Origin: Eledone cirrhosa | Lineage: Eukaryota | Assembly (NCBI GenBank): GCA_964016885.1 | Contig: OZ024745.1 | Location: 48,174,001-48,238,000 of the forward strand | DNA: 64,000 bases | Direction: 5' to 3' | Shown: positions 3,671 through 60,185 of the stretch, one piece after another | How the letters are laid out: every line of letters begins with the position of its first letter | How positions within the stretch are numbered: position 1 is the first letter of the stretch | The notes under the pieces: model-generated | What the model saw: only the letters and a program-made list of their open reading frames with translations | Databases searched by the model: none | What the model was told of the DNA's origin: nothing | Translations under genes and position numbers: made by a program

Positions 3671-3749
3671 GTATATTTACGATAAATTTGTAGTAGGTCA
3701 GGTGTATTTAGAAGCTAACAATGGCAGAAATTATTTTGATTCTAAAGAG
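3671..3749 (+). CDS. C3-like exon (MG3): YIYDKFVVGQVYLEANNGRNYFDSKE
   Basis: ttttcag acceptor, gtaag donor; resembles YxYGKPVxG. Confidence 0.75.
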
Positions 3750-6700
3750 GTAAGATTTTTGTCAAATATGGAAATATTTTCATTGTATTGGATTTCTTCT
3801 CTACCCATTATACATCCATTAACTTATCTCTCTTTGTATTTTATCTATATATTATATATTTATGTGTCTCCATACATCTGTCTGTTGATTTCTTCTTCTA
3901 TTACTTTTCTACAGACATATTCCAATACATATCATCATCTTTCCCATCATCATTTAATGTCTATTTTCTCTGCTATCAAGGGCTGGGTGGGTTGTCACAG
4001 ACCAATTCAGTACTCAAGCAGAGCTACTGACCACTCAGATTGATAGAAAGTGGGGGTGCAACTCCATCTTGCTTACATATGTTCCCATGCTCTACTGAGT
4101 ACATTTTATCATGGCACCAGTGCTAGGGAGGTTGTCATGTCTTTGAAACAGTTGAAGGATCCCCCTGATCCTTTATTTGGGAGGTTTTTTTCTATGGCTG
4201 GATGCCTTTTCCTAATACACACCTTCACACATATACACAATGTACAGTTGCAAATGTTAATCTCATGAGACCATGAATTTGCAGCCAGAAAGGCTTCCTT
4301 CAGTCATGTTGGTAGAGCAGTGGTGTCTGCTGCCACTGTAGAGACACACACATGAGTGAGATCTCTGAGTGTCGAGACTACATTTCAAGGAACTTTATTC
4401 CAGGATTCTTTGCTTGTTTTTTTCCATTGAGTGCACTTTTCTTCAGTAGCAAACATCAATTTCTCATCTCCTCTTTTAAAATTTTTGTTTATTTTCAGCC
4501 CTCTCTACTTCCAGCCTTCAGTACTTTCAGCCCTTTCTATTTCCAGCCTTCACTAATTTCAGCCCTGTCTGCTTCCAGCCTTCTCTACTGCCACCCTTCT
4601 CTACTTCCGGCCCTGTCTACTGCCAACCTTCTCTACTTCCAGCCCTATCTACTTCCAGCTTTGTCTACTTCCAATTGTGTCTAGTTCTTCCAGCCTTCCC
4701 TAGTTCCTTTATCTTTCTGTTAATCTATCCACTTATCAATATTACGACCCTTGCCATTCTGAGTTCAACTCCCGCCGAGGTTAACTTTGCCTTTTATCCT
4801 TACGGGGTCGATAAAATAAAGTACCAGTAATGTACTGGATAATTGCTGGCCGATGTGCCAATAGTAGAAACAATATTATTACTTTCTCTGTTAATCTACA
4901 GTTATCAATACTTGTTCGTAATATATATATATTCTTTAATATCATACAATTAAATTCACTATCTAATTTTCCTGTTTATGATTCTATTAAAGTTAAATAA
5001 TGGTCAGTGTACTTTCAACATAAAAATGAAGGAAAAACAGGCAAATCTTCAAATGTTTAATGTTAAAGTTCGAGTTATTGAAAGCAACACAAGAGCAACA
5101 GAATATAAAACTGATAATACAGCAACATTTATCAACATGAAAGAAACCGATCTCCAATACAAAGTAAGTATCAAATGTATAGAAAATAACATCTAGATGT
5201 TGATTAAACAAATATGTCTATTTTATTCATCTCTTCTCTGCCTTGTCATTATTATACGTTTCATTATAGTTTAGCAAAGAAAGGAAGTGAAGTGACCATG
5301 GCTATTTTTTCAAAACCCCTGAGACTATTGGGAAGAAAGGAAGGTAGGAGGAAGGTTTCTTTAACTGGAAACCTGGCCTGAATGCTTGCAACAAAGTGGT
5401 GTTCACTAAAGGCCCCTAAGTCCCATATGATGGCGTTAAACTGGATGATAGGTTAACTTTCCTACCCCACCAAAGTTATGCCCCGGCTCAGTGTCATCAT
5501 TGTAACATTTGATTTGATTTTTATATGACCACCCAGTCCACATTGTAACATGGTTGGTGTTAGGAAGAAACCAAGTCAAAATTGAGATCCATATAAACAA
5601 GATGTAGTCACCTGATCTGACTTGTCTCATAACATGACAACCTGTCTAACCCATGCAAGCATGGAAAATGGACATTAAACGAAGATGTTGGTGTATGAGT
5701 TAGATGGGCATGCAGTGTTGAATATGTCTATATGTCCCCATATGATGAAAGATCTTTAGATAAATTTAAACACTTTAAAATAAACAGCTTTGTATTGTAA
5801 AACAGATTCATGTTGTTTGGTATCAAAAAAATTAATTTGTGCCAGAAATGATTATTATATTTCTATTTTTAGGAGTTATTAGATGCCAATGAAAATAAAC
5901 ATTATAAAGACGTATCAGACCAGCAGAAAAACAACAACGTTTCAATTATATTAACTCGAAGCAATATAAAACTTTTAACAGTAAGTAAAATATTTTGAAT
6001 AGATGATTAACCCTTTTATTACTTTATTCCTAATGAATGACACTATTTGTGATCTACAAATAATTTTCAAAATAATCAAGAATTTTGATGTATTTTTTAA
6101 GCTGAGGTTTATGGCAGTGGATTGGTAGAATCCTTAAAACATCAGATGAAATGTTTTTGAATTTGTTCTGCATGTAATATGGAATGAAATTGAAATAACA
6201 ATAGAATATGTATAGTTTGAGTTGTATTCCTCTAAATATAATCTTGCTACAAATTGCTGGTCTTGTGCCAATGCTAGAAAGAATTATTAAGCTGGTGTTT
6301 GGAGCATTTAAATGTTTTTAGCATTTAAACTGGCTGTATCTGTCCCAAATTCACTAACCTCTTTTTATTCAACCAGCTGTAACTGGCTGCTCATACTTAT
6401 GTTAAAGTATTGTTCTCAAAATAAATAATATCAAAATGTTGTAGATTCAATATTATGTAAGATAATTAGGTAAGATAAAGTCTTTACCACAAAAATACCA
6501 TAGTACGAGGGTAATCCCAAAAGTAAAGCCTCCAAAGCGATGGGGACACAGAGAAACTGTTTGTACGGCTGTTGGCAACACTGTTGTGATTGGTGCTTTC
6601 TTCACTCCTAAACAAGTATGTGCGTGCTTCGCTGGGATGCTCAATCTTGGCTTGGCAGCCGTTGAGAATGGAGCTCCCGTTGAACGCTACCGCCAAGTGC

Positions 6701-7557: not shown

Positions 7558-7634
<77 letters not shown>

Positions 7635-8930
7635 CAGCAATAGCTATAACTTTGAAACAAAATGTTTTATCAGAAAGAATTCTTTGTTAATAAATTGTAA
7701 TGTAGAATTACTTAGTAGTTTTAGAATAATATAAGGGCCTGCTGAAAAGTTTATAGGCTGACTACAAATGTTAGAGCTGTGAAATCTTGCTTACATGCAT
7801 TAATTTGAACTCTTCTTATTAATAACTGCATTGTTTCTTTCCAGAAACTATGTTGAAAAATATACCTCATTTGGTCGTTCAACGAGAGTATCTTGGTCAG
7901 CCTATGAACTTTTCAATCTATAAACTTTTCAGCCAATGCTTGTATCATAAATTCCCTTCCATTTAGATTTATTTCTAGATAATATCTTTGTGTTTTTATT
8001 TTATTTATTTTAATAAATGATGCTATTTCTTCATTGGTAAATCTTTTGGCTTTATTTTGTAACATGTCTTTAATTTGATATTTTATGCAGGATAAGAATG
8101 TAAGAATAACAGCTGAAGTAACTGATTTGTCTGTAAGGACACTTTCTTATATGGTAAGAACAAATTTATTCTTTTATTGTCTTATTCTTTTACTGGTTTC
8201 AGACTAGGTCAGTTACCAGGCTTTGGGGTTTGGAAGAGACATTGGAATATTCTGGGTGGGCACTTCTAATTCACCTAATTCTAATGTGAAGTTTTGGAAT
8301 AAAGATATCACTGTAAATGTTCCTAAATCCAAGGGTATAGTATTGTAAAGTAGGGAGGCAGGGACAGTACCATCTAGTGTTCCCCTCCCAAGACGATGGG
8401 CTTCGCTTCTGTCATCAGATTATGATCATACTGGAGCATTACCATCAAGGGTTTTAGTGAATCATATCAACTAGAATATTTATTAGTAAATATTTGTGTG
8501 TTGAGGAAGGATGAAAGTATTTGGGTGAGAGGGAGGATGGAAATTATTATGGAAGAAAATAGATGAAGAGGAAGACCCAGACAGACATGGCTAAAGATGA
8601 TGGAAGAGGAAATGAAAACCAGTGTATTGGTGAGGAGGTAATGCAGACAGAAGAGAACAATGGTGAAGCTTGTTATAGCAGAAAAATTGTTCTTTAAATA
8701 CTTGTCTATATATATCATCATCATTTTATGCCTGCTTTTCCCTGCTTGCAAGGGTGGGATGGGTCCTATTCAGCATCTCTCTATTTGTCACGGTTCTTTG
8801 TTATCTCCTCCACGAGCGTCAGCGATCTGAGGTCAGCTCTCACCACCTCTGCCCATGATTTTCGTGGTCTTCCTCTACTGCGTCTTGCTTCTACTGGGAT
8901 TTCTTGGCACTTCTTTACCCAGTGGTCAGT

Positions 8931-8994: not shown

Positions 8995-11900
8995 TTTGAG
9001 AGGGTCATGCTGCCAATAAAAACACATGCACCTGTTGGTTTTCACTTCAATTTATTATATATATATATAGTAAGAATATTTTCAAAACAGCGAGTGGGTT
9101 TGAAATTATTAGAAATGTAAGCTATCGCCGTATTTTGACTAAAGAAATTAAAGAAATTATTTAGCCTGATAGTGGGGTTAAGAACCCTCGGAGAAATGGA
9201 AATACTCATCTTTTTCCATTTCTCCGAGGGTTCTTAACCCCACTATCAGGCTAAATAATTTCTTTAATTTCTTTAGTCAATATATATATATATATATATA
9301 TATACATAAACATACATGGCATGTTTTTATGATTTGATTATTACAGATTATATCAAAAGGAAAAGTTTTGTTAACAGATAAAAAGTCAAGTACCCATAAT
9401 GTTTGGAACTTTGACGTCGACATCACAAGTGACATGGTTCCCACTGCAAAATTTTTGGTCTATTATTATATGGAAAACAAAATAACAACTGCTTCCATAA
9501 ACCTCGATGTATATGATGTATGCCCATTCATGGTAAAATTCATTTAACTTCTGAACATCTCAACTTCCTTGTCTTAACTCGCATTTTTGTTGATAAAATT
9601 CCACCCCATCAACATTTATTTATGTATGTATGTTATCTCTTTCTCTTAATTTCGAGTATATTTTTGACCGGCCATCTTCCTGGTGGCAAGGTTGCAAAAG
9701 AAAAGAAATTGTCATCCCTTGAATCGCAAGAATGTTTTGCAAATTTTGAAGGTGCCAGCTATCGCAGCCATTTCTAGACTATGAATTAGGGAGCTGCGCT
9801 CTTTGTCCACAAATCCAAGTTCAGTCATACTTTGGTCCAAGCGGGTTGGTATATAACCCGTAGCTCCAATAATGATGGGTATGAAGCTAAAGGTGTATCT
9901 TGGATACTGGATTTGTAAACTCCTCATCAATGGTCCGTAGATGTCCTCCTTCTCCTGTATTTTTCTGACAACGTTTACACAAGTGGGCAGCTGATCTCCA
10001 CAACAGAACACGTTTTCAATGTGTGGTCCCAAACAACAATATCAGACCAGTTGTGCTTTGATTTAGTGGCAGTTTTTATTTTCAGGTTCCACCAGTATTC
10101 CTTAGTGCCATCTGTCTCATTATATTCTTCCTCGTTTGCTTTTAATTTTATTTTCCAAAGTGTGTTCCAGATGGTTCTAGCTATCCCATCGCGTCTCATG
10201 GGGAGGTAGTAGCGAGTTGTATGTATGTATGTTTTTGTTTTTTGTCCTGCAGCGTGTCCAAAATCACCCTCTTCACCAAGTAAACTTGGTGGGGTTGACG
10301 GTTTAGTCGCCGACGACCAGACCTTGCAACAGGTTGTACTGGGTTACTTGTTACCAGTAGCATTCAAGAGTGACCCGACAAAAAACAAAACCTGACAAAG
10401 GGCGGAAGAACTCATAAGAGTCAACGGCCAACAAAAAGTGTGTAAATATGTATGTATATGTGTATATACATGGGTGCATGTGTATGTATATGCGCGGGGA
10501 CATAGAAATAGTCAGGCTGGACACCCGATCGCGCGGTTAAACCACTAGGAGTGACTGACCCCTAGCCTTTGTCAGGGCATTCTTCTAGGAGAAGGCAACT
10601 CAGGAAACTGGGATAACCCCAATATAAAACCTACGGCTCAGTAGTTACCGATGATGTTGATCTTTTCTTCTTTTCGGGTTATAGCTACTGTCGCTCAGAG
10701 ATTGGGATTGGCTCAGTGCACAGTCTTTCCTCACTTTAAAAAATATCTTCACGCACAGGCATTGCACGATAGAATTAATTAATAATTATTAATAATGTTA
10801 TATCGTGCAATGGCCATACTCGATAACGAGGGGGCAGCCATCATGTATGTATGTATGTTTATGTATGTATGTATTTTCTTGTCTCTCTTTTGCTAATTAT
10901 CTCATGTGAGGTAACAATTATGCTCCATCCTGTTATTCATCCCTGGGCTGTGACTAATCTATTTTGCCTCATTACTTACACTTTGTCTGGTATGATTCTA
11001 AACAGCCACCGTGATAATTTTCCCAGTGCCTGGGATACACTCTGAGCTTTCATAGTTACCAGTCATAAAATACTGAAAACTCAAATTTCCTTTGATATTA
11101 GAATGAATGGCTGAATATTGAAAAGTGTTTATTCCATTTGTATCGTCAAATATTTGAATTTACTCTTTTACCTGTACCAGCCATCCGGCTGAGGCCATGC
11201 TGGGGCACCGCCCTTGGAATTACAACATTTTCTGATGTGACACAGTATTTCTTCTAACATAAATCATCATAATCATCGTTTTTGCACCCATTTTTTCCAC
11301 ACTTGGATGGGTCTTTCGTCACGTTCCTTCATTATCTCCTCTATAAGTCAGCGATTTTAGATTAGTTCTCACCAATTCTTCTCAGGTCTTTCTTGGTCTA
11401 CCTCTACTGCAGCTTCCTTCTACTGAGATTTCCTGCCACTTCTTAATCTAGCGATCCTCATCCATGCACATGGATCTTTCTGCTGTTATGATGTCATCAT
11501 CATCATTTCATCATTTTATTTTACGTCTGCTTTTTCCCTGCTTGCAAGGGTGGGACGGGAACTGATTCTGGCTTGATTTCTACAGCTGGATGCCCTTCCT
11601 AACACCAACCTCATTTACAGTGAGTGCTAGGTGCTTTTTTGCCGTGGCACCTCCACAACCACTTTGCAGTGGAATCTCATTTCTACAGCTGAGTAAACTG
11701 GAGCAATGTGAAATAAAGTGTCTTGCTCAAGGAAACAACACATCACCCGGTCTGAGAATTGAACTCACGACCTTTCGATTGCAAGGCCAATGCTCTAACC
11801 ACTAAGCCATGTGCCTCCATGATGTGTACGTAATAAAACAAACAGCACAAATAGACGGTTGAAAGAAAACAAATAAAATAAAATAATAGAAGAGTGGGCC

Positions 11901-19800: not shown

Positions 19801-21091
19801 AAGACTAAAGTCCTAGTTTGTAGAAAGGAAAATAAGGCACAGGTACCCTCAGGGAAATGGCCTTGCTCAGTGTGTAGAAAAGGAGTAGGCAGAAATTCAA
19901 TTTTATGTCCCAAATGCAAAGTATGAGTACATAAAAGATGTAGTGAGATCACAGGTAAACTATCTAAGAACGTAGACTTTATATGTGGCCGATGCTTAGG
20001 TGCAATAGGTAGCAAGTGTCCACAGGATACTAGCCCTTTCTATTGCCCAGATGGTCCTATAGAAATAGTAGACACTTTCCGTTACCTGGGTGATGAAATC
20101 AGCAGTGGTGGAGGGTGCTCTGAAAGTACAGTAGCCAGAGTCAGAACGGGATGGAAAAAGTTCCGAGAGCTTATACCGCTGTTGGCCACAAAAGGTTTCT
20201 CTCTAAAAATGAAAGGCAGATTGTATGATGCTTGTATACGAACAGCAATGTTACATGGCAGTGAGACATGGGCATTGTGTGCAGAGGACCTGCGCAGACT
20301 GGAGAGGAACGAAGCATGCATGCTCCGTTGGATGTGTAATAGTAACATACGTGAACGGCAAAGCATAAATGAACTAAGTGAGAAATTAGGAATAAGAGGG
20401 ATCAGATGCTGTTTACTCGAGAGAAGACTACGTTGGTATGGCCACGTGATGCGCATGAAAGACGACAGCTGTATAAAAAAGTGCAGGGCGATCAAAATTG
20501 ATGGTAGTTACGGAGTAGGTAGACCCAGAAAAACCTGGGACAATCTGATAAATTCCGACCTTACACACTTTCACCTCTCTAATACAATGTCACTGGACCG
20601 ACATCTTTGGCGCTACGTAGTAATACAGAAGACCCACCTTGCCTATATACAAAGCGAAACCTACAGTCAGTAGGCACCTCTTAACCAAATATACACCCCA
20701 ATCCACTACCCCTACCCTATCCTCCCACTCCCACCAACACCACCCCCTCTCTATAAAGTTGGTACCACAACATCCAGTCCAAATAAATGAGATAAATGAG
20801 ATCGAGATCGTGTAGGTGTCACAAGAAAAAACACACAGTCCACGCTGTAATGTGGCCATGTAGGTAACACGGTAAAAAGTTCCCAGTTCCACACTGTAAA
20901 TGTGGTTGGTGTTAGGAAGGGCATCCAGCCGTAGAAACCTGCCAGATAGTCCTATATGAGCAAGACACAGTCACCCGACCAACCTTGCCTCAAGTGGGAC
21001 AATTCCCGTCTAACCCATGCTAGCGTGGAAAGTGGACGTTAAACGAGGATGATGATGATGATGATGATATAAAACTGAGGATGTCTGTCTC

Positions 21092-43000: not shown

Positions 43001-43909
43001 AGACTTGCTGGAAGATGTGTTGGAGGACTTGGCTTTCGCGACCCTCCCAAGAATAAGTGGGCAAAGAAGAGGAAGACTGGTACCTTATTTTATCCCCAAC
43101 CCATTTGCAAAAGGATGAAAGGCAAAGTTGACCTCAACAAGATTTGAATGTAAAGGGCTGTAATTAAATACAGCAAAGCATTTTGTCTGATACTGTAACA
43201 AGTCTGCAAATTCACTGCCTATAATAATAATTATAATAATAATGAAAATAATGGTTTCTTATATAGGCACAAGGCCAGTAATATGAGGGGAGGGTGAGGG
43301 GAAAGTCGATTAAATCGACCCCAGTGCATGACTGGTACTTTATTTTATCGACCCCCATAAGGATGAAAGGCAAAGTTAACCTCGGCGGGATTTGAACTCA
43401 GATCATAAAGGGCCGTAACTCTATGCTGCAAAGCATGGCATCCGACCCTCTACTGATACTGCCAACCCACTGCCCTATAATAATAATGAAAATCTTCCGC
43501 CCTATAATAATAATGAAAATAATAATTATATTTATTCTTATTACCTAATTTTTGTTTTCCAGAATACTGTGATTTCACTACAAGCTTTGGCAGATTACAG
43601 TATCAAGAGTAATATTCCATATCAAGACTTCAAGTTGGACATCATTGATGATTTAGACCAAAATGAACAAGAAATCAGCAATTTCCTAATTAATCGGAGT
43701 GCTATCTTTGAAAAACCAGCAATTTCAGATGTAAGAATTGATAAATTTTATTTTGTATTCACCAATACTAAGTTAACCCCAATGCTAACACATCTCTCTC
43801 TCTCCCCCCTCTCTCTCTATCTATCTCTCTCTCCCCCTCTCTCTCTATCTCTCCCTCTCTCTCCCTCTCTCTCCCTCTCTCTCCCTCTCTCTCCCTCTCT
43901 CTCCCTCTG

Positions 43910-50000: not shown

Positions 50001-53000
50001 AAAACAGCTCTGCGCTTTATACTCCGGTGAGCCTTATGTATAAATAATACAATGGTAATCAATCACGGCTCTAACAGAAGTAATAGATCTAGACTAAAAG
50101 TAAAGAAGATAGCATTTTCTGGTTGGCCTTACACGCCGTTGCGCGGACATGATTTTAAATGATACGCCTTATATCCTGGTGAGCCTTATAGAGCGGAAAA
50201 ATATCTATTGGAAAAGAATACGAATTCATGACCAAGGTGTGACAAAATAGGCCTGAAACAAACTTGTCCAAAACCCTAGGATTTTTCTCGTTAAGTATCC
50301 ACCCAAAAGGAACCGTTTTTTAGTTACAAAAAATAACCAAAGTGTATAGTAGCTATATTTCTGACATATCATGCCAAAAAGAACAATATATTCAAAAAAT
50401 GTTCTAAAGTACATTCAATCTCTCTTTTTGACTGATATCTTAATAAGCAAGTTATCGATTTTTTTTATTGGCTGTCAGTGTCTATCTGCATGCAGGTGTG
50501 CACGTGTGCGTAATTAATTGCAAATACGCTCATAACATTTAGTCGTAAGCAGAACAAAAAATGCCATTAGAGGTGGGCTAATAATGAAGACACAAACCCT
50601 GGTGAACTTACGTTTAAACACCCGAAAAGTTACTCACTTCCTGTGCAAAAGACTGTATTATAAATTAAGTAATTTTTTAGAATCTTTTGTTTAAAAAAGG
50701 AAAACATTGGTACGATGTAAACTTTTTTACTTGTATTGTATGTGTACAACACAAGTTGGTCAACGTATTATTTAGTAATTTTTTTTTCAAAAAGCATGAT
50801 TATTTAAGACTGTTTGAAAATTTACTCACAGCTTTTAGGTTCACAAAAAACACCATTAAATTTGGTTCCCTTTTCAGATAGGGATAATACTGTATTTCCA
50901 CTTGAATAAGGTGGAATATGAAAAGAAACTCTTTAATGGTCGGTCGTTTACTGAGACAGCTGGGAAGACATGCAGCTGGCCGTCCAATCAATAACGCACG
51001 TCCTTATATGGGCATATGAAATTTATTTTTATTGCGCCAGATGTAAACTAAGAGTTCTTGTGTTCAAATTCACATAAAATTTCATTGGAATCGAAAAACA
51101 TTCTGTCATAGGGCCCGATTATCGATTTTTCGAAAATTTCAAGTAGCCTATTCCACTCTACGCGTTGAGTTTTATATATGTGTGAGGTTTCATGAAAATT
51201 GGATGAACGGTGTAGCAGGCAAGTTCGGTACACTAAACAATGTCCATCTTCCCTTTATATATATAGATATACATATATGTGTGTGTGTGTTAGGTAATTC
51301 CGAAGGAAAAGCAAATAATTAAATATATATATATATATATATATAGAAGTGGTTACACAACAGTTAGTTCACCATACTGAGAACAATTGTTTCACCTTAG
51401 CCGATCCTCAGCTCGTAATGGACATGGTTATACGTAACAGGAAGGACAACCGCATATATATATATATCCAAAATTAAATTAAGGGTGTCATGTTCGAGAG
51501 ACATGCGCCATATCCACTTTAGAAATTATTCCCTGTGATTGTTTCATATGTTTATTTTAGATATATATATATATGTCAATCAATTTCTAGTTTATATATA
51601 TAAATGTAATCTGAGTTTTTTGAATATTAATAATAATATTCGATTTGTTTGCAATTATGCAAACAAGCCTCATTTTTAAAGCCATGTCAGTAGAATGAGC
51701 CTCTCATTCTTGCTCTTGTGTTGGCATATATATATATATATATGTGATGCGCATGGAGGATGACTGATGGGTGAAGAAGTGCCAGGAATTGCCAGTTGAA
51801 GGAAGACGTGGTAGAGGTAGACCACGAAAAACATGGGCGGAGGTGGTGAGAACAGACCTCAGATCATTGAAGCTCACGGTGGAGATGACGAAGGACCGTG
51901 ACGAGTGGAGAGATGCTGTGCTGAATAAGACCCGTCCAACCCTTGCAAGCAGGGAAAAGCGGACGTAAAATGATGATGATGATGATATATTCATGTATTA
52001 ATACTTTCATTATTTTTTCATTAAAGGCTATGTGATTATTCTCCTGCCATGAATCCTAATAACAAAACTACTGTTTACTGTGTAACAATAACTGTCAGGT
52101 TGGTAATTTTGATGTATACTTAGTTTCTAATGTTGCCCCAATTCTCACTATCATCCCTTTCATCCTCATCATCATTTTAATGTCCCTCCCTCCTTACTGG
52201 TATAGCAGTTTTTAAAGGCTGGGTGGCCTTTCTGGCACCATCCTTTCTAGTCATCTCTTACAACATGTAGGCATATAGTGTGCTTATTCTTTAAACCAGC
52301 ACACATATGCCATCATTATCATCATTGTTTTTACCATTTTCAACGCTAGCATAGATTGGATGGAGTGTTTTAAGAGACAGTGTTTTACAACTACATGTCC
52401 TTCCTGATGTCAACCCTTAACCCTTTAGCATTTACATTATTCTATATTTCCTATACGATCTGAGTTGAAATCCCGCCGAGGTTGACTTTGCCTTTCATCC
52501 TTACGGGGTCGATAAAATAAAGTACCAGTAATGCTCTGGGTAATTGCTGGCCTTGTGCCTAAAGTAGAAACAATTATTCTATATTTCCTATTATATTTTC
52601 ACAACCTCACATAATATCCCACATAATATTGACACTGAGATTTTCATATTATTTATTTTGAGAACAATACATTAATGAGTGGCTGGTTACAACCGGTTTG
52701 AACAGAAAGAGGTGAGAGAATTCTGGTTGGATATGGCTTTTTTAAATGCTAAAGAATTAAGGCATTCAAGGATATGGTATATCTATTCTAAAAACTGGGG
52801 TACACATGGCAAGGATATACACAGTTATATTTACAGTTAAAACAGTAACATGCTGATATCAATTCAGTGGAATATACTTCTCTTCAATAGAAATTTGTTT
52901 GATATCCAACCAAAAGAACTTGATATTATTATTTTTTTAATATTCATCAGATTCCTTTTCAAATCAACTTCATCAAATTAAATTTATGTAGTTTATGAGT

Positions 53001-56000
53001 ATTCTACTCTCTAACCAGATGATAAATGCACCCATACATTCTTTAAAGTGTTTAGTGATAAGAAGAGCATCCAGCTATAGAAAACTTGCTAAACAAAGGG
53101 TTGAAAAGACCCTTCAGCTCTGTCAAAGACATAACAACCTCCCTAGTAAAGTATACTTGGTAGTGCACAGAACTGTATATAGATGAGATGTAGGCCCCTA
53201 GCCCACCTGAGAGGTCAGTAGCCCCATTTAAGTACTAATTCAATCTGTGAAGACTCATCCAACCCTTGCTAATTTGGTAAACGAACATTAAATGGTAATG
53301 ATGATGATATATCAAACTAATAGTGAATTCTCCTTGTTTATTTTAGGTATCTTGGACCCCAAGACTCATCTTTAACAGCAATAGATGTTGATATTTTGAA
53401 AGGTCATTATATCCCAGAGGAATCTTTAAAGATGGTAATATCACACAAATATTATTTTATCAAATCTTAACCCTTTTGATACCAAACCTCCTGAAACTGC
53501 CCCCAATTTATGTTACAAAACTGCTCATTTTAAAATGCTTATCCTTAATTTTATTCTAGAAATCTTTCTTCACTAATGTTTTAGATATCAGTTTACTTAT
53601 GAAAAACTTCATTATTTTATTAAATTCCTCCAAATGTTTGGTTGTTTTCAAAATTAATAACACATGGGCAGTGAATTTCATTTGAAATACAGTAATGAAA
53701 GCGTGAAATATTGTTCATGACAGTTAAGCATATATCTCAAAGACTTGCTTTCCAATTCAAAGGCAGGAAATACTTTAGTTCTGAATAGCTGATGATCCTC
53801 TACAAAGCATAAGTATTATCTACAACATTCAAATAGTGCTTCCAAATTTGAGATAGTCTCACTTACACAGTCTTCATTGTATCTGTTTAAATTTAAACCT
53901 TCCATCATAATTTTATGTGAGAACATTTATTAAGTTATTGTCCAAATACCAGCTTAATAATGAAAAAGTTAGTTGTATTACATCTCTCTAATTTTTGGTT
54001 ATTTTAGAATTTATTTAAAATCACAGGTAGTGTATTTCATTAGAAATATAATGATGAAAATGTAAAAAGGGAATAACAAAATATATATGAGGCAGTTTAA
54101 GGTGAATTTCTAAGTATCCTGTTGATTGGGAACTCAATTTAGTGCTGCAGATCCGTAAATGATATCATTTGATACAAACTCATTATAATATATTATAATA
54201 CCATTATGCATAATCTTTTTCATATAATATAATATTTCTTTATTTCAGCTGTCAGCTGATAACTTGAAACATTTAAAATTAAATGGTAAAACTACATTGA
54301 CATTAATCTTTGAGAGCGTAAGTATTGTTACTACAGAAATCTTGCTTCATATTATGTTTTATTTTTATGTTTATTTCATTTTATTTTATTTTGTTGTTTT
54401 CTCTTGTGTAATTTATATATAGAACAACTATGTTATAGAATTTTAATTGTAATTGAAGCAAAAATAGATGTATGTGAATTATTGTGGAAGGTAGAAAAGA
54501 CACATCAAAGACAACAGCATATCATTTAAATTATAGGTATTTATAATCTTTAGTAATCTAGATTATAAAAGAAAACCTGTTTCTCCATTTGTCTGTCCAC
54601 ACCATTTATATGTAGGAGTGAAAAGGGGAAGAGTGAATGGGGAGGCAACCCTTTTTTTTAGGCTGAGAAAAGGGAGATAACTTGTGTCATGCTTATAGTT
54701 TATTGCAAACTTAAGACTCTACAAGGGTTAGGGGTAATAAGGTAGAGATCTGTAGGAAGGGGTGGTCGGGATGAGCCAGAGGAGGGGGGGGGGGGTTATT
54801 TGTGCCCGAAACGACAAGGCTGGAGACGGAGAATGAGTCACTGCATATTGCATCCAAAATTAGGGACTTGTCTTCCTTGAAAGTGAAGAAGGCTTAACCT
54901 GTTGAGGCACTTGCCATCGCTCTGGTCATGTCCAGCTGGCTCCAGTTGCGAAGGGAAACTGGTTGCTTTGAGGCTCCTTCTGATGATGTTGTTCAGAGTA
55001 CCATGACAGGGGAGCCAGCCTGCACTAAGGCTGCAAGATAATGGGTGCAGACAGAACTCATCAACCACTGTTCTACAACAGCATCTGTGTGACTCACATA
55101 CACGGAGGCCAAGGTGCTGTGCTGCACCAATGTGGGTGCACTTCTTATCAAGAACTCTAAGTTTGTATCCCTCTTTCATCCTTTGTGAGGTGGGGCTCTA
55201 TGAAATAAAATGCCAGTGATGTACTGGGAACAATTTACTTGAGTATACCATTCACCCAAATTTGAGGCCTTCTCCTTTGTCATAAATCAATATTATAAAT
55301 TGCAAGAATTTCATTAATAAAATGAATAGGTTTAACTCTTTTTGATACCAAACTGTTTGAAACCACCACTAATTCTATTAAACAAGTATTTAAAGTATTT
55401 ATATTTTTCTAAAACCTTCCATCCTGGGGGTCTGACAGTATGGGCAGGACAGGTTAGTGCAGGGCTGGGGAGTGCAAGAGGAGAAAATAGAAGTCTGGAG
55501 TGGAGATATCATGTGAGCATCCGCATTAACAATAGAAAATGTAAAAGGCTTTATGTTATGCTCCAAACACCAGCTAAATAATGAGAAAGTTAGTTATGTT
55601 ACTCTAATTTTTTTTATTATTTTCAAAATGATTTGAAACTCACAAGTAACATTTTTCATAAGAAATATGGTAATTAAAGGGTTAATACATTTCAGATTCC
55701 AAGCAACAAAGTACTCACTTTCCATTTACTGGTAGTCAAAGATGGATATGAAAACTCAATATATCGGTCAACCATTCAAGTTTATGAATTTAGTAAGCTA
55801 CGTAAGTGTACACATTTCTTTTATGTTTCTTGTACCTAAATAAAAAAAATCATTATCTTCTTCTCCTCCTCCTCTTCCTCCTTCTTGGCCCACTTATTCC
55901 TGGAAGGGTCAGAGGAACTGAATCCTCAAACACACCTTCGAGTGGGTCTTGTTAGAAGCCAATATCTATAATTGATCTGGCTGGATCCCCAAGTGAGGCC

Positions 56001-59000
56001 AGCTGAGCTCACACATGTTATCCAACCATCTTGCTCAGGGACTACCCCTGGGTCTCCTGATGTTTGGTTTTGCCTATAAAATTTGTCCAGCAATTCCTGA
56101 GATATTCTAACCACCTGTCCACGTTATTGGAGCTGTAATCTCTTAATTCGGAGAAGTAGTGATTCTACTTGGAGCCCCTTTTATTATTTTTGTGGTAGGT
56201 CTGAAGGAAGGAGCAGTTCTCTTGCCCTTCACTGACTCTAGCGGAAGTTCCCATGACCTTTACAGAGCTTCCAAAAGTGAACAAATAGATGCCATTAATG
56301 TTCTGCTTAAACTGTTGCACGTTGACTCCACTGGAAAGACATGAGTGGGGAGGGAATTTCTGGGGGTCTGACAGTATGGGCAGGACAGGTTAGTGGTTAG
56401 TGCAGGGCTGGGGAGTGCAAGAGGAGAAAATAGAAGTCTGGAGTGCCTGAGTGGAGATATCATGTGAGCATCCGTATTAACAATAGAAAATGTTGAAGAA
56501 GGACAGCACATGTTTCTATTCTGTAAAAAGTAGGTTGGTAGAATTAGTGGAAGACTTGGAGGTCCCTTGGTTTCAAGGATGACAACATCTCTTTGTGTTG
56601 GTGCTAAATGCAGTTGGTGATTATGCTGATGTGAGCGAAGACCATGAGCTGAGCAGCAGAGTTTTCCACAGGTCAGACAAGGAAAGGGTAAGCTGGGTGT
56701 TGGAAGTGATCTTGCAGCAGCTGTAACAAACTTTGCTTAGCATTCATCAAACCATATGCCAACTCTAACTACAAATCAATAATAATTGCATGTAAACTTC
56801 ATTATATATAGTATAATATTATACCTTTTCAGATGAAAGCTGTACAATTCTTTACCCAGATAAAAAAATTAATTTGTTCTGTGACTCAAAGAAAACAGAG
56901 TGTATTTGTTCAGGAAGTAAGTATAATATTTCATTATTTCATTTTTTAGATTGGCAGTATTGGTGGAGCGTCAGATACCATGCTTTGCAACATTGAACTA
57001 TGGCCCTTTACGTTCTGAGTTTAAATCCTGTTTAAATCCCGTTTAAATCCCGCCGAGGTTAACTTTGCCTTTTATCCCTACAAGGTCGATAAAATAAAGT
57101 ACCAGTAATGCACTGGGGTAATTGCTGGCCTTGTGCCAAAAGTAGAAACAATTATTTCTTCTAACTCTGTCTACTTTGTCTTTGAAGCATCTACACCAAC
57201 TACTACTTAGGTCACCAGAGTAATAGTTCTAGAGAGCCCTCAGGGTACTTGAAAAATTATTTCAAACATGCTCTTACTCTTGTGCATCTGCTACATACAA
57301 AGTTTTCTTCTATGTCAGCTTGCTTGTCATTAAACTGAAACTAACTGCTGCTTTGCCATTTCTGTTTCTAGTAATATATTCTGTATGTTCCAATTGTTCC
57401 ATGTAGTATTTCATTTTTTCTTCTTTTTTTATCATACATACCATTCATACATACATATATAGCATACATATATACCATACATACATACATAAATGGATAT
57501 TTATCTCCAGGAAAATATTCAAAGAGTAAAATTTCTTTTTAAAAAAGAATTCTAAAATGATATCATCAATACAGGATGTGGAGGGAAGAATGGAAGCAAA
57601 AAAAGAAGTGCTAAAATAACTAAAAAAATAAATATTTCCATACACTGACAATATTAAAATCACACAACTTATGTAAGTGTTCACCCACGATGGGTTGAGC
57701 ATTGTAAACAGAAGGCAACCATTGATAATTAAAGATGTCTGATTTGGAGATTGTCAACCAATTGTGATTCCAATGACAGACACCATATGCTAGGACCAGA
57801 TATCAATTCAAGATCCAACTTAATCATGCTAATCCATGTTTTCAGATGTCTACTTCACTGCTTACACCCTTCTATTGCAACTGTGTCACAAATAACCTCA
57901 TCTCATGGGTAGCAGTGTGCATGACCAAACCAACCGAGGTGCCTTTTGAGTAAAAGTTGTTGAAAGGAATGAATCTAATAGTGATGACAAGTTTCAGGAT
58001 TTTTTTTTAAATGAATACATAATAACCTCTGTATCTCAGATATTGATATTTTTCTTTGAATAGTTTGTGTAAATTGCTCAGATAATGGAAGATTAAATAA
58101 AATAACATATTACGAGGAATTGGCTTGTAAATCAAACCAAGTTGGTGAGTTATTTATTCTCTTATTTTCCTTTTAACCCTTTTACATTTATATATTTACT
58201 ATTGTATTTTTGTGGTAAACACTTTATCTTACATAATCATCTCATATAATATCGAATCTATGAGATTTTGATATTTATTTTGAGAACAATACCTTAACAT
58301 CAGTATGAGTGGCCAGTTAAGACTGGTTTGAACAGGAAAAGGGGGGAGAACTCTGGCTGGATATGGCTGATTTAAATGCTAAAGGGTTAGCAGGTGATGT
58401 ATTGGCAGAACGTTGGATTGTGTGCTTTGCAGTATTCGTTCCACATTTCTGTGATCTGTGTTCAAATCCTGGTATGGTGAACTTAACCTTTCATTCTTTT
58501 AAAGTTGATAAATAAAGTACCAGTTCAGTACTGTGGTCAACTCTTCCTCTATATCTCTTTCTCACTTTCTTTCTCTGGAAGAAATCAGTTGGTTTAAAAT
58601 GCCCCCACCCCCTCTCCTCCCAAAAAATGTATGTCACAACAGTGCCCTTATAACTCCATCAGGGTTATGGGTTCCTACGTTCATGCATACAAACAATAAT
58701 TTAGCAGAAAATATCTATTAAAAAAAACCAGGTTTGTTGATCTAAATGTTTATAGTATCTTTACTAATGGACAGGTTGTTATGAACATTTCCAGTATCAA
58801 AGTAGACTTTAAACTTTAAAAATTATATAGCATTATTTTGTACCTTTCAAGAACGTTTTTTTAATGCTGTTTCACGTGGTATAGGACGTTAAAAGTTAAT
58901 TTAGAATGTACTGTTGTATTTTCGCGTAAAGGTTTTATTAGACTTTCTGTTTTTTCTTCTTTTTTTTTGTGCCTCACTTATCACCCTACCAGGAAGTGTG

Positions 59001-60185
59001 ACCAACAAATAGTATTGGCTTTTAAAAGACCAATGGAAACATAGTTTTCTTGGTCCAATCTGATGATTGGCTTCTTTCTTTCTTTTACCGTTGAATTTAT
59101 TTCAGTGTAACCACCACCACCACCACCACCGTCACCACCACCACCACCACCACCACCACTGCCACCGCCACCACCACCACCACCACGATCATGATCATGA
59201 TCATCATCATGATCATGATCATGATCATCATAATGATCATCATAATGATAATGATCATGATCATCATCATGATCATCATAATGATCATGATCATCATCAT
59301 GATCATCATGATCATGATGATGATCTCTATGTCATGTATAACTTTCTATTCCCTTGGTGGTATCTAGAACATGTGTTGTTCATTAATTTTCTCACCAGCT
59401 CTCCTTCAATTATATTTTGATGGCCTGGTTAGCTTATGTACTGGTTAGATTCTCTTGTTTTCTTTTGGTTTTCAAATTTCTATATTCCAAACCACATTAG
59501 ATCATCTTACTGCCCCACTTTCAATTCTGTCTCTCTTCATAATCTCAGCCGCGCTCTCTTCCTTTCTGTCATACATTATTGTGACCCTCTGGCCCAGCAC
59601 TAGTGATATTGCCTGTTATCTAGGAAGATCAAAGAGTACCCCCTACTCTACAGCATGAAATGAGCGAATGATGGGTTCAAAAGGGGTTGGGTGAGTAATG
59701 AGAGAGAGAAACAAAGAGGGAGTGAGTGAGTGAGAGCTGGCAGTACAAAAATGACGATGGTAAGGTGTATCTATAAAATAAAGTACCAGTAATGCATTGT
59801 GGCTGATTTAATCAATTTTCCTCTCCCCTAAAATTGTTGGCCTTGGGTCTAAATGAAAACCATTATTATGTGGATTGGCAGTATCGGTAGAGGGTCGGAC
59901 GCCATGCTTTCCAGCACAGTTACCTCCCTTTACGGACTGAGTTCAAATCCCGCCGAGGTTAACTTTGCCTTTCATCCTTACGGGGTCGATAAAATAAAGT
60001 ACCAGTAATGCGCTGGGTAATTGCTGGCCTTGTGCCTAAAGTAGAAACAATTATTATTATCATTATTATTGTTGTTAAGAAATTATTATTATTTTTATTA
60101 TCATCATTCATTACAGTGGCATTCATCAAATTGTTGTCAATTGATTCAGAAATATATACAGCAGAAGTAATAGAGTTTTTAAAAG
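3671..60185 (+). CDS. Complement C3-like protein gene (thioester-protein superfamily), 28 reconstructed exons, partial at both ends; thioester-dead variant
   Basis: Exons with AG/GT boundaries and compatible phases translate into C3/A2M landmarks in the correct order: YIYDKFVVG (MG3), DMVPTAKFLVYY (MG5), VDKAMNYLN, RKKR, LPDYITTW, GSGEQ, RKNDGSYS, STWLTAFVLK, LQALADY, RYLG (MG8), CICSG..C..C..LAC (anchor/C345C). Confidence 0.9.
4993..5163 (+). CDS. C3-like exon (MG3 end): LNNGQCTFNIK...VRVIESNTRATEY...DLQYK
   Basis: aag acceptor, gtaagt donor; 57 codons, phase 0/0. Confidence 0.75.
5873..5980 (+). CDS. C3-like exon: ELLDANENKHYKDVSDQQKNNNVSIILTRSNIKLLT
   Basis: tttttag acceptor, gtaagt donor; 36 codons; NNVSIIL resembles the MG5 start NNYLHL. 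Confidence 0.7.
6504..6901 (+). mobile_element. mariner remnants, including a 180-bp TIR-bounded deletion derivative (6722-6901)
   Basis: TIR tacgaaggcaatcccaaaagtaaggtct and its inverse at 6874-6901; internal DRRITLDAL..EVSRSTIHRILTEKLQYRK (transposase HTH); a second left TIR at 6504. Confidence 0.8.
7732..7945. mobile_element. Degenerate mariner-like MITE
   Basis: ctgaaaagtttataggctgac and inverted gtcagcctatgaacttttca. Confidence 0.45.
8091..8153 (+). CDS. C3-like exon (MG5): DKNVRITAEVTDLSVRTLSYM
   Basis: tgcag acceptor, gtaag donor; 21 codons; joins IISKGK as in C3 YTYLIMNKG. Confidence 0.75.
8714..8930 (-). mobile_element. RTE LINE 3' fragment (family A)
   Basis: WVKKCQEIPVE..RGRPRKSW and (CAT)n tail. 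Confidence 0.8.
9135..9280. repeat. Perfect inverted repeat, 68-bp arms with 10-nt loop
   Basis: 9135-9202 is the reverse complement of 9213-9280; followed by (TA)n. Confidence 0.92.
9347..9532 (+). CDS. C3-like exon (MG5): IISKGKVLL...ITSDMVPTAKFLVYYY...DVYDVCPFM
   Basis: ttacag acceptor, gtaaaa donor; 62 codons; typical M-x-P-x-x-R/K-x-x-V-Y-Y motif. Confidence 0.85.
9633..10218 (-). mobile_element. R4/Dong-like non-LTR retrotransposon 3' fragment (restriction-like endonuclease), frameshifted
   Basis: HNWSDIVVWD..C.VVEISCP / K..EK..Y..L / IPIIIGATG motifs; flanked by (TATG)n on both sides. Confidence 0.75.
11495..11818 (-). mobile_element. tRNA-derived SINE with RTE-family-A 3' tail (further copies at about 13060-13423 and 46500-46835)
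   Basis: Minus-strand head ggaggcacatggcttagtggttagagc...gttcaattc (A and B boxes); tail cccacccttgcaagcagggaaaa..acgtaaaa shared with the LINE. Confidence 0.82.
14298..14441 (+). CDS. C3-like exon (MG6 beta): IYTDKKEYHPKE...VVLSFVDKAMNYLNNKHRITKEF
   Basis: cttttag acceptor, gtaagt donor; 48 codons; VDKA motif. Confidence 0.88.
15911..15964 (+). CDS. C3-like exon (linker): VRDQMLLNLETDGMLNND
   Basis: ttgtag acceptor, gtaagt donor; 18 codons; weak similarity only. Confidence 0.6.
17160..17279 (+). CDS. C3-like exon with RKKR processing site: NFKLSIVQDYDRTFLQRKKRQDATISREVPVTTPKQFNHL
   Basis: Poly-T tract plus gtag acceptor; RKKR at 17208-17219; donor ambiguous (exon end 17279 or 17238). Confidence 0.72.
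17770..18630 (+). mobile_element. Old degenerate RTE LINE 3' part
   Basis: FVCRRC...GGGCSGSIIARIRIGWKKFRELL with frameshifts; (GAT)n tail. Confidence 0.8.
19488..21068 (+). mobile_element. RTE LINE, 5'-truncated (family B), premature stop at 19924-19926
   Basis: GVHQGSVLSP and YADD RT motifs; 3'UTR of about 400 bp; (GAT)n tail. Confidence 0.92.
21068..21739 (+). mobile_element. Non-autonomous Helitron-like element
   Basis: 3' end has hairpin cccgtgcaatgccggg followed by ctag|t; related to 29452-30048. Confidence 0.65.
21990..22059 (+). CDS. C3-like exon (acidic alpha'NT-like): IENPQVPGNFEYMFNDNENFIED
   Basis: ttgtag acceptor, gtaagt donor; ends in phase 1, matching the next exon. Confidence 0.65.
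22646..24263 (+). mobile_element. RTE LINE, 5'-truncated (family B), 380-aa uninterrupted RT/C-terminal ORF
   Basis: FVDLEKAFDRVP, GVHQGS, YADD and FRYLG motifs; (GAT)n tail. Confidence 0.93.
24340..24385 (+). CDS. C3-like exon: (N)SADILPGEFYDLKL(R)
   Basis: ttttcag acceptor, gtgata donor; phase 1/2 fits both neighbours; occupies the position of FPESWLW. Confidence 0.65.
25722..25947 (+). CDS. C3-like exon (MG6 alpha/MG7): NDGISKMNFSLPDYITTWEIQ...FCVAE...FLYNYKNTGLK
   Basis: LPDxITTW and LYNY motifs; aacag acceptor, gtaagt donor. Confidence 0.92.
26519..26749 (+). CDS. C3-like exon (MG7): VKLTLHKSTDLCS...FVIRPIYSGYLPIKVSA...KNTSN
   Basis: cctag acceptor, gtaatt donor; 77 codons; MG7 pattern. 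Confidence 0.85.
26888..26927. repeat. 40-bp perfect palindrome
   Basis: aacatgtagttttgacacta|tagtgtcaaaactacatgtt, close to (TA)n. Confidence 0.88.
26971..27015 (+). ncRNA. Type I hammerhead ribozyme motif, U3-A8 core variant
   Basis: Stem I actgtc/gacagt, core ttgataa, stem II tgac-caga-gtca, gaaa, weak stem III, GUC triplet at 27007-27009. Confidence 0.6.
27315..27402 (+). CDS. C3-like exon (CUB N-half): SLKDNENNLSSEITVPVVKIEDNEISFKN
   Basis: taacag acceptor, gtatgt donor; supplies the phase 0 to 1 shift needed before the TED exon. Confidence 0.7.
27938..28126 (+). CDS. C3-like exon with degenerate thioester site: ...EKLILMSYGSGEQNIIYMALTIYALKY...KKFIRM
   Basis: actag acceptor, gtaaag donor; matches LIxMPxGCGEQNMI apart from C>S and P>S. 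Confidence 0.92.
29452..30048 (-). mobile_element. Non-autonomous Helitron-like element
   Basis: ctag plus hairpin cctggcgttgctcggg at the left end; tctatatatc-type start at the right end. Confidence 0.62.
30525..30600 (+). CDS. C3-like exon (TED): GIEKQMTYRKNDGSYSTFENTESSTW
   Basis: tttcag acceptor, gtaat donor; YRxxDGSYS and STW motifs. Confidence 0.92.
30979..32642 (-). mobile_element. Penelope-like element, 5'-truncated, with GIY-YIG endonuclease remnant and inverted termini
   Basis: ORF 32196-32624 CPLNNNCLVKNIVY..YVGST..FKSRFNNH..C.LC.EE; about 40-bp inverted repeat 30979-31018 / 32601-32642; adjacent to (TA)n. Confidence 0.82.
32694..34096 (-). mobile_element. RTE LINE, 5'-truncated (family B)
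   Basis: ORF with YADD, PHD-like insert and FRYLG; 3'UTR and (CAT)n tail at 32694. Confidence 0.92.
34573..34704. repeat. Perfect inverted repeat, about 65-bp arms
   Basis: atatactatatt...agaaagg cc cctttct...aatatagtatat; runs into (TA)n. Confidence 0.92.
34796..34952 (+). CDS. C3-like exon (TED): LTAFVLKIFCEA...WLLKKQKNNGAFKEDKLIIYKEMM
   Basis: attag acceptor, gtaagt donor; WLTAFV and QxxxGxFxE motifs. Confidence 0.92.
36424..36501 (+). CDS. C3-like exon (TED): GVISDTGLTAFVLISFMECKENFHQE
   Basis: atccag acceptor, gtaatt donor; LTAFVLIS motif. Confidence 0.9.
37040..37762 (+). mobile_element. RTE LINE 3' fragment (family A) with internal deletions
   Basis: KKFRELLPLLTKKGFSLRTKGRLYDAC; (GAT)n tail. 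Confidence 0.85.
38104..38278 (+). CDS. C3-like exon (TED): ILENEQVIIHSIKYLEQEL...SIVTYALT...KAISES
   Basis: aacag acceptor, gtagta donor; YLE and YAL helices. Confidence 0.88.
40438..41071 (+). repeat. 40-bp minisatellite, about 16 near-identical copies
   Basis: Unit aaacacagaacactatacacatacatgctaccactttcac; degenerate CA-rich precursor upstream (about 39810-40437). Confidence 0.95.
41428..41868 (+). mobile_element. RTE LINE 3' fragment (family A)
   Basis: ORF 41434-41856 ending LNRTHPTLASREKRT; (GAT)n tail. Confidence 0.88.
42009..42181 (+). CDS. C3-like exon (TED): GKKYWQ...SVLTTAYSLL...IFKWLMLQTNKNRIFSSTK
   Basis: tgtag acceptor, gtaagc donor; YW, TAYxLL and WLxxQ motifs. Confidence 0.9.
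43563..43730 (+). CDS. C3-like exon (TED end/CUB): NTVISLQALADYSIK...PAISD
   Basis: ttccag acceptor, gtaaga donor; LQALAxY motif. Confidence 0.9.
43982..44037 (-). ncRNA. Type I hammerhead ribozyme motif in a Penelope-type terminal repeat
   Basis: Minus strand ttttat-CTGATGA-tagagtaccaaaatttggtaccctt-GAAA-tatata-TA-atagaa; the flank matches the terminus of the element at 30979. Confidence 0.6.
44060..44940 (+). mobile_element. Highly degenerate RTE LINE internal fragment (upstream of the RT core)
   Basis: Remnants such as AIKEMKNGKA, EML, CYKGKGDA..RSN.RGIK and FGF, broken by stops and frameshifts. Confidence 0.65.
46065..46255 (+). mobile_element. tRNA-derived SINE, about 190 bp (related copies near 968, 4745, 43250 (-), 45266, 52455, 56950, 59869 and many older ones)
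   Basis: Head ggcggtggattggcag...gagttcaaatccc; body gaggttgactttgcctttcatccttacggggtcgataaaataaagtaccag; (ATT)n tail. Confidence 0.85.
46328..46467 (+). CDS. C3-like exon (CUB/MG8): LPEEDQNTITSLGLGSEV...KKCYFEINSKVIFIEGKKK
   Basis: ttttcag acceptor, gtaagt donor (phase 2); GxG and CxF motifs. Confidence 0.8.
47275..48015 (+). repeat. Diverged minisatellite, about 50-bp unit, about 15 copies
   Basis: Consensus approximately tttagctgctatttctagcacacctatggaccaccatgaggttcccccta. Confidence 0.88.
48029..51267 (-). mobile_element. Non-autonomous Helitron-like element (about 3.2 kb) with nested CR1
   Basis: Minus strand 5' TCtatatatataaaggg at 51267; 3' hairpin cccgggcaacgccggg and CTAG at 48029; inserted between A and T. 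Confidence 0.72.
48952..49697 (+). mobile_element. CR1/L2-group LINE 3' fragment
   Basis: VRPHLEFASSVWNPY..LETVQRRATK..YSERL..FFTLRVAEAWNKLP; internally duplicated 3'UTR; (ATT)n tail. Confidence 0.88.
51742..51985 (+). mobile_element. RTE LINE 3' fragment (family A)
   Basis: KKCQELPVEGRRGRGRPRKTW...; (GAT)n tail. Confidence 0.85.
52027..52098 (+). CDS. C3-like exon (MG8): LCDYSPAMNPNNKTTVYCVTITV(R)
   Basis: taaag acceptor, gttggt donor; phase 2/2, joins to RYLG. Confidence 0.72.
53347..53434 (+). CDS. C3-like exon (MG8): YLGPQDSSLTAIDVDILKGHYIPEESLKM
   Basis: ttttag acceptor, gtaata donor; resembles C3 [21 protein letters not shown]. Confidence 0.88.
54249..54317 (+). CDS. C3-like exon (MG8): LSADNLKHLKLNGKTTLTLIFES
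   Basis: tttcag acceptor, gtaagt donor; 23 codons. Confidence 0.78.
54790..55140 (-). mobile_element. CRE-like non-LTR retrotransposon remnant (zinc knuckle / RLE region)
   Basis: LGL...C.C..VVD..LHPLSC..SAG..CH..LNNIIRRSL..PSQLEP.G....DGK resembles the CRE C-terminus. Confidence 0.7.
55696..55801 (+). CDS. C3-like exon (MG8): IPSNKVLTFHLLVVKDGYENSIYRSTIQVYEFSKL
   Basis: tttcag acceptor, gtaagt donor; VYEFS occupies the VYDYY position. Confidence 0.82.
55860..56150 (-). mobile_element. Degenerate RTE (Rex3/Expander-like) 3' end; related tail at about 42950-43075 (+)
   Basis: Minus-strand RPRGSP*ARWLDNMCELSWPHLGI; shared end gaccct..aataagtgggc.aagaag. Confidence 0.5.
56833..56916 (+). CDS. 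C3-like exon (MG8 end/anchor): ESCTILYPDKKINLFCDSKKTECICSG
   Basis: ttttcag acceptor, gtaagt donor; resembles C3 ESCTRFYHP...LC...CRCAE. Confidence 0.88.
58064..58144 (+). CDS. C3-like exon (C345C start): CVNCSDNGRLNKITYYEELACKSNQV
   Basis: aatag acceptor, gtgagt donor; C...AC pattern at the start of C345C/NTR. Confidence 0.8.
59110..59325. repeat. Compound (CAC)n / (GATCAT)n microsatellite
   Basis: Read directly from the sequence. Confidence 0.9.
60117..60185 (+). CDS. C3-like exon (C345C): AFIKLLSIDSEIYTAEVIEFLK(G)
   Basis: ttacag acceptor, gtatga donor; Y-x-x-x-V-x-x-x-x-KG NTR pattern. Confidence 0.78.

Follow-up and report, generated by a model that had tools for sequence, protein, structure and literature searches.

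The window analysed here, 64,000 nucleotides of the 3.0 Gb Eledone cirrhosa genome (C5:48174001-48238000), carries 28 exons of a paralogue of complement C3 on its + strand, at 3671-60185. They join over 3,311 nt into 1,103 aa with 0 stops and AG/GT ends throughout, which bears out the in-frame product of about 1100 aa described in an earlier note on this DNA. Its features are the following, in window coordinates.

3671..60185, + strand: the 28 exons of the C3 paralogue that lie in the window, from MG3 into C345C (first half)
3671..3749, + strand: exon, MG3
4993..5163, + strand: exon, last part of MG3; the corresponding C3 exon, which also begins MG4, is 15 codons longer; in spliced contig
5873..5980, + strand: exon, MG4-slot remnant (YKELxxANxN motif) and first MG5 strand; C3 has two phase 0-0 exons at this place, of which one is lost
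8091..8153, + strand: exon, MG5; matches the 62-nt gap in the spliced contig
9347..9532, + strand: exon, MG5 with beta-chain Cys of the predicted inter-chain disulfide
14298..14441, + strand: exon, MG6a
15911..15964, + strand: exon, shortened LNK without the CSPGGG cysteine
17160..17279, + strand: exon, carries the end of LNK, RKKR (17208-17219) and the first part of the Cys-free linker replacing ANATO
21990..22059, + strand: inferred exon (phase 0-1), variable linker; from splice score and phase only
24340..24385, + strand: exon, alpha-prime-NT-like segment
25722..25947, + strand: exon, MG6b and MG7 start, alpha-chain Cys (HFCVA)
26519..26749, + strand: exon, MG7
27315..27402, + strand: exon, remnant of CUB first half; one phase 1-1 exon lost
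27938..28126, + strand: exon, TED start, GSGEQ at 28006-28020; preceding Pro also changed
30525..30600, + strand: exon, TED
34796..34952, + strand: exon, TED; Tyr (34938-34940) at the place of the C3 catalytic His
36424..36501, + strand: exon, TED
38104..38278, + strand: exon, TED
42009..42181, + strand: exon, TED; STK instead of the near-invariant STQ
43563..43730, + strand: exon, TED end and CUB second half
46328..46467, + strand: exon, CUB end and MG8 start
52027..52098, + strand: exon, MG8 insert, two Cys
53347..53434, + strand: exon, MG8; Leu where C3 has Met1378
54249..54317, + strand: exon, MG8; Ile where C3 has Tyr1425
55696..55801, + strand: exon, MG8; YY motif (C3 Tyr1460-1461) changed to FS
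56833..56916, + strand: exon, anchor region, 4 Cys kept
58064..58144, + strand: exon, anchor end and C345C start
60117..60185, + strand: exon, C345C; the final two exons follow beyond the window, about 37 and 40 kb further downstream

The full model extends beyond both window ends, with six exons upstream (to about -59.6 kb) and two downstream, and reaches 1,439 aa in 36 exons over about 160 kb, two of its introns measuring 37-39 kb each. Homology to the Octopus orthologue placed 27 of the 28 window exons. The linker exon at 21990-22059 (70 nt), for which the homology search gave no match, was selected on splice score and on restoring the phase; among 16 listed candidates it stood second to a retrotransposon ORF and was the best of the others. 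None of 117 upstream candidates for the start exon was convincing. Some 59.6 kb upstream of the window, immediately ahead of the first exon of the model, a MMILKL start similar to the Octopus signal start occurs out of frame; an exon further upstream, a slip in the assembly or damage to the signal peptide are possible explanations. No second copy of the paralogue was found in 264 kb around the gene, nor in a genome search with a stricter first pass.

Four runs of one study cover the stretch and none is recorded as RNA; X4 is one sample without library or tissue record. In this run a single 1,060-nt contig lies on 4991-5163, 5873-5980 and 9346-9532 with 0 differences, and the 62 letters between its second and third pieces fit the 63-nt exon at 8091. 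Contigs of run X1 continue into introns. We read X4 as cDNA: this supports transcription of the paralogue, four of its exons are spliced together, and that transcript has no MG4 exon. The RNA support from E. cirrhosa covers the MG3-MG5 exons, so that of the junction check suggested beforehand the part around the missing MG4 is backed by a spliced contig, and genomic phase together with the database models of the orthologues supports the junctions at the ANATO slot, the thioester exon, CUB and C345C.

Used as a query, one exon retrieves a single protein, Octopus sinensis XP_029658479 ('CD109 antigen-like', 1,474 aa), whose cluster includes O. vulgaris 'complement component 3' models and O. bimaculoides XP_014770265 ('complement C3-like'). 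A partial model of 1,226 aa represents the orthologue in Argonauta. All four species display the same losses: in 4/4 orthologues the motif reads GSGEQ, a Tyr replaces the catalytic His, neither LNK nor the ANATO slot contains a Cys, and a RxxR site is present. In one O. vulgaris model the 62-aa MG5 exon with the inter-chain Cys is left out, and the Argonauta model is without a 21-aa MG5 exon; these skips possibly correspond to alternative splicing of phase 0-0 exons or to model errors. Neither the 150 best representatives nor 13 matches of a word search, a weak search that also missed octopus C3, include a decapod orthologue.

The genome also encodes a canonical C3 with GCGEQ, VIH, a six-Cys ANATO and MG4 (C18:37.30-37.33 Mb, 39 exons in 37.6 kb, 1,678 aa). 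The earlier note had suggested looking for such a copy nearby; it exists, on another chromosome. Of the 35 introns of the paralogue, 29 match those of canonical C3 in place and phase (24 in the same column, 5 within 5 columns), and the other 6 fall in remodelled or poorly aligned parts. According to this intron map, one phase 0-0 MG4 exon and one phase 1-1 CUB exon have gone from the paralogue. With canonical cephalopod C3 (O. vulgaris, Argonauta, Sepia cluster) it shares, besides these introns, 31% identity, the RxxR site, the inter-chain Cys pair, the anchor and C345C. The canonical protein differs by keeping GCGEQ, the His, the six ANATO cysteines, the LNK disulfide, MG4 (103 aa) and CUB, and measures 1,678 aa against about 1,450 for the paralogue. 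Other TEP-family loci lie at C18:43.42-43.47 Mb, C4:281.60 and 281.98 Mb, C1:441.6 and 441.97 Mb and C1:325.8 Mb. The thioester exons of the two C1:441 Mb loci, separated by about 360 kb, translate to the same sequence; these loci are either a recent tandem duplicate or an assembly duplication.

In a search of representatives at 50% identity, the Argonauta paralogue came first and Argonauta C3 second, far above the others; the third-best representative, a synthetic triple C3d construct, was dropped. A cluster-atlas search returned only generic C3/C4/C5/CD109 clusters. Trees of 150 rows (FastTree) and of 36 and 18 rows (IQ-TREE, mixture model), which omit 10 representatives below 900 aa, the synthetic construct, two unrelated cluster members and nine near-duplicates, group the paralogues in one clade with full support, sister to octopod-plus-Sepia C3 (100/100). 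Grouping with octopod C3 alone was rejected by the AU test (p 0.0001), and the duplication therefore predates the octopus-squid split. The missing decapod orthologue could reflect loss, missing data, or a long stem branch combined with odd composition.

The RefSeq name invites another identity, that of a CD109 or an insect-type TEP and not of a C3 derivative. The best solved-structure sequence match is indeed CD109 (E 5e-74 vs 1e-69 for C3), the ANATO is absent and Pfam NTR is silent in Octopus. However, grouping with two CD109/TEP-type rows is rejected (AU p 0.005), the clade is sister to cephalopod C3, 29 of 35 introns are common with C3, and the anchor and C345C are present, whereas CD109 and insect-type TEP have no C345C and group in the A2M branch. 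This identity is hardly credible. The gene is almost certainly a functional C3 paralogue: trees and introns agree with the derivation from C3 put forward in the earlier note and with a thioester loss independent of that of vertebrate C5, and the placement outside the C3 clade, envisaged there as a refutation, is not what was found.

The thioester motif, read directly, is GSGEQ instead of GCGEQ, and the catalytic-His site is IIYKEM instead of VIHxEM. Their surroundings are altered as well. The Pro preceding the motif (present in 126/126 relatives) and the Gln of STQ (123/126) are both replaced. In MG8, the equivalents of human C3 Met1378, Tyr1425 and Tyr1460 (numbers mapped onto the paralogue by alignment), which we take to be the thioester-shielding residues, a role that PMC9156758 describes in general terms, are Leu, Ile and Phe, Leu or Trp in the paralogues, while 114/119, 114/117 and 106/116 thioester-bearing relatives retain Met, Tyr and Tyr respectively. 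Because Cys, His, Pro, Gln and MG8 shield are all replaced in four species, the encoded protein must, by its sequence, be unable to form a thioester. The ANATO slot has 0 Cys in 4/4 orthologues and no Cys occurs from RKKR to MG6b; the protein has no anaphylatoxin to release.

The MG4 slot is 43-49 aa long in the paralogues. It measures at least 85 aa in each of the 43 other complete C345C-bearing representatives, among which 4 are without the thioester Cys, 3 without ANATO Cys and 3 have a short CUB first half. Genome matches to Pfam MG4 both (2/2) fall at canonical C3, none elsewhere. In CUB, the first half comprises 35-36 aa vs 72 in octopod C3, and 53 low-complexity aa in Argonauta. Hidden exons do not account for these losses: across 13,212 six-frame ORFs of 264 kb, cephalopod-C3 profiles for MG4, ANATO and the CUB exon gave nothing (best E 1.2-6), and in the same search a control profile recovered its exon at E 8e-10. 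Net charge has also shifted, from between +41 and +56 in octopod C3 to between -1 and -14 in the paralogues.

Other features persist. The RKKR site, with cleavage predicted, is kept as RxxR in 4/4 orthologues, the inter-chain Cys pair (MG5-MG6b) is present in 4/4, and anchor and C345C keep 10/10 Cys. The C345C has 4 Cys and matches the profile of cephalopod C3 C345C at E 1e-13 to 1e-16 (fish C5 reaches only E 0.005), and a structure-model alignment to C3 extends to residue ~1650, into this domain. Its weak point is Pfam NTR, which does not detect C345C in two Octopus orthologues and stays below cut-off in Argonauta (E 0.033). The inventory made from the letters, with thioester Cys, catalytic His, ANATO cysteines and most of MG4 missing, and RKKR, structural cysteines and C345C persisting, is in this way confirmed by motif reading, profiles and four orthologues; a non-covalent product is supported, and the worry that exons had been overlooked finds nothing in its favour in these searches. 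The half-deleted CUB, the lost MG8 pocket and the constraint concentrated on TED come in addition to it.

This constraint is visible when the two genes are compared between species. The Eledone paralogue is 65% identical to that of O. sinensis, vs 79% between C3 and O. vulgaris C3. Its TED alone retains C3-level conservation, with identities of 83-90% in the N half and 72-82% in the C half (85-87% and 69-73% in C3), whereas MG7, MG8 and C345C reach 40-57% vs 70-90% in C3. Over three species, invariant columns in the paralogue amount to 216/293 in TED vs 267/634 (42%) in the other folded domains (Fisher p 1e-19); in canonical C3 the figures are 216/310 vs 513/745 (69%) and do not differ (p 0.83). 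The TED has moreover been rewritten: 92 positions, about one third of the domain, are fixed in four paralogues in residues absent from four cephalopod C3s. No face-specific conservation was detected, neither between thioester-side loops (56/81) and far-side loops (21/33; p 0.66) nor among helices, which are likewise even. Conservation being spread over the whole TED, constraint on the fold together with relaxation elsewhere may explain it. The least conserved segment is the linker replacing ANATO (29-40% identity).

Such faster evolution than C3, one exon that is inferred and a start codon not pinned down could also be expected from a decaying pseudogene or an annotation artefact. Against it stand open frames in four species, the spliced contig, the uneven domain conservation and neutral simulations at 18% amino-acid change, of which 0/200 were stop-free (mean 15.8 stops). 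The pseudogene reading is largely refuted and we hold it for very improbable; the gene is intact, as had been proposed.

Two AlphaFold models of orthologue residues 254-1453, from 17 and 46 rows (pLDDT 60.9 and 73.7), present MG3, MG5-MG8, TED and C345C as folded. The MG4 slot appears as a short helix plus disorder, the linker at the ANATO place is disordered, and CUB has in both models a pLDDT under 50-70, a low confidence that may be a modelling limit. The modelled TED superimposes on C3d and C4d with Z 35-36 and rmsd 2.0-2.3 A over 279-287 residues. With an rmsd of ~12 A to the alpha chain of native C3 and ~25 A to C3b, the second model lies nearer to the native form, at a pTM of only 0.45 and with an alignment composed mostly of canonical C3; this counts against an always-open shape, and fold searches did not distinguish open from closed.

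Several functions of the human protein help to read these losses. MG4/MG5 dock substrate C3 on the convertase and CUB touches the proconvertase (PMC10092904, PMC12922740, in excerpt). iC3b is unable to bind factor B, and TED is a ligand of CR2 and CR3 (PMC4451739, in excerpt). Applied to the paralogue across about 25% identity, these human C3 interfaces suggest that the absence of MG4 would impair its docking as convertase substrate or partner and that the broken CUB would impair its binding of factor B, in the manner of iC3b, its TED being held on a loose tether. Cut at RKKR, the protein would consist of two chains held by the kept MG5-MG6b disulfide. Since the cascade parts are lost or relaxed and TED is kept, we favour a secreted two-chain TED binder: an intact, conserved octopod C3 duplicate displaying TED for non-covalent binding outside the convertase cascade, a reading that we give about an even chance. 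The partner of TED would be a conserved one, most probably a receptor on haemocytes or the surface of microbes, and the product could be a non-covalent opsonin or a C3d-like decoy in haemolymph. Among the roles offered in the earlier note (decoy, scaffold, convertase regulator, secreted effector), that of a convertase scaffold is the one we consider least likely, since the losses fall on MG4 and CUB.

This last role deserves to be considered in its own right. A C5-like or venom-factor-like scaffold would be a constitutively open C3b mimic that binds factor B and acts as a fluid-phase convertase or as a dominant-negative sink. Available text of PMC4974347 presents the ANATO of human C3 as a proposed safety catch whose removal gives the C3b shape, and all 10 cysteines of C345C and anchor are kept. 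Yet the parts contacting factor B are relaxed (C345C 47-51%, MG7 46-57%, CUB halved), MG4 is absent, the C-terminal residues vary among species, and the conserved part is TED, which a convertase scaffold does not need. Such a scaffold seems to us quite unlikely.

The Cys-free linker could alternatively act as a bait region in a protease sensor or non-covalent protease trap, convergent on the TEP/A2M plan, where cleavage alters the shape. Its low conservation, its disorder in both models and the proximity of the second model to native rather than activated forms would suit such a role, and ovostatin, which has no thioester, is still inhibitory (PMC7016707, excerpt). But the MG8 pocket and CUB, which in the accessible text of PMC9156758 are said to hold the closed form of A2M-family proteins, are degraded here, the protease-caging MG ring is without MG4, and the genome already has other GCGEQ-bearing TEP-family genes. 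We regard a trap or sensor as improbable, although it is the strongest of the competing functions outside TED display.

Other thioester-less TEPs have non-immune extracellular or junctional roles, and matrix or growth-factor binding or gland secretion may be imagined for the octopod protein too. MCR proteins devoid of thioester work in development and metabolism (PMC7016707, excerpt), and both the charge shift and the disappearance of every immune-chemistry residue point in that direction. The same excerpt describes MCR with an LDLa domain in the place of ANATO and a transmembrane tail; the paralogue has neither, its linker being Cys-free and its C-terminus a C345C, and it descends from C3, not from MCR or CD109. 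A non-immune role appears to us a little less probable than the protease trap.

Closer to the secreted TED binder favoured above is human iC3b/C3d, with no ANATO, no reactive thioester, a broken CUB and a receptor-accessible TED (PMC4451739, PMC10092904, in excerpt). iC3b arises by proteolysis and is covalently fixed, whereas the paralogue state would be gene-encoded, non-covalent and without MG4, so the likeness is a working analogy only. Taken further, it would make the protein a permanent iC3b/C3d mimic encoded by a gene whose cascade parts (ANATO, MG4, half of CUB, the thioester and its shield) were all deleted exon by exon, a seven-MG scaffold displaying a re-specialised TED to a new and conserved receptor or ligand on microbes. 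This remains tentative, and we consider it rather doubtful; if true, this would be the first case in nature of a C3-family protein closing its MG ring without MG4.

Thioester loss has occurred repeatedly among invertebrate C3-likes (PMC8960428). Excerpts of PMC8960428 describe a gastropod type without thioester, ANATO and cleavage site, and those of PMC7016707 two Biomphalaria C3s without thioester and ANATO. The gastropod type I proteins and Biomphalaria BgC3-1/BgC3-3 (the naming differs in the part available of PMC9363628) likewise keep C345C. The alpha-beta cleavage site of type I is lost, whereas the octopod paralogue keeps RKKR and belongs to a cephalopod-only clade; it is set apart from type I by descriptions, no type I row having been identified in our trees. 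For one gastropod (Biomphalaria) C3-like, CDD did not detect MG4 (PMC9363628, same part); its length is 1,754 aa and therefore does not indicate a physical MG4 deletion. Vertebrate C5 and razor clam ScoC3-like-3 are also thioester-less two-chain C3 paralogues. These two retain ANATO within a full set of 13 domains, and cleavage activates them, as the accessible text of PMC8960428 has it, whereas the octopod paralogue is without ANATO; fish C5 has lost the first two MG8 pocket residues too. Among fish models, those of Alosa and Scleropages are without the thioester Cys and most ANATO cysteines and keep MG4, the Alosa cluster counting 6 members from two species.

The idea that such loss is exceptional is consequently not borne out: with thioester-less and ANATO-less C3-likes of gastropods and clam already published (PMC8960428, PMC7016707, both in excerpt), the earlier note overrated its novelty. 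In the open literature searched (six accessions, 0 matches; most supplements and subscription papers, e.g. on Littorina or Euprymna C3, lie outside it), we found no description of the octopod gene, its clade or its MG4 deletion, and the accessible parts of PMC13365339, PMC4199593 and PMC9835746 do not mention the gene. The octopod C3 paralogue thus appears real, conserved and undescribed, and the kind of protein already known. The record is corrected on two points, the RefSeq CD109-like name and the survey of PMC8960428, which in its accessible text credits O. bimaculoides and O. vulgaris with a single C3-like apiece, the accessions being different ones.

One and the same animal carries the canonical C3 and a stripped version of it, a clean pair for comparison which shows what C3 still serves without covalent chemistry and cascade, TED being indicated as the part under selection. 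In the excerpts of PMC8960428 the function of the thioester-less razor clam C3-like is stated as open. The MG4 deletion is a natural test of MG-ring tolerance; human C3 uses MG4 for convertase docking and drug binding.

The introns in the window hold repeats of their own. Near-identical truncated LINE copies lie at 19441-20670 (+), 22676-23875 (+) and 33094-34152 (-), with Pfam matches to a reverse transcriptase and an embedded PHD-finger. Minisatellites occupy 40438-41071 (perfect 40-bp unit), 47275-48015 (50-bp unit) and 61769-64000, where a 28-bp unit is repeated in at least 80 copies, 96% alike, and continues past the window end.
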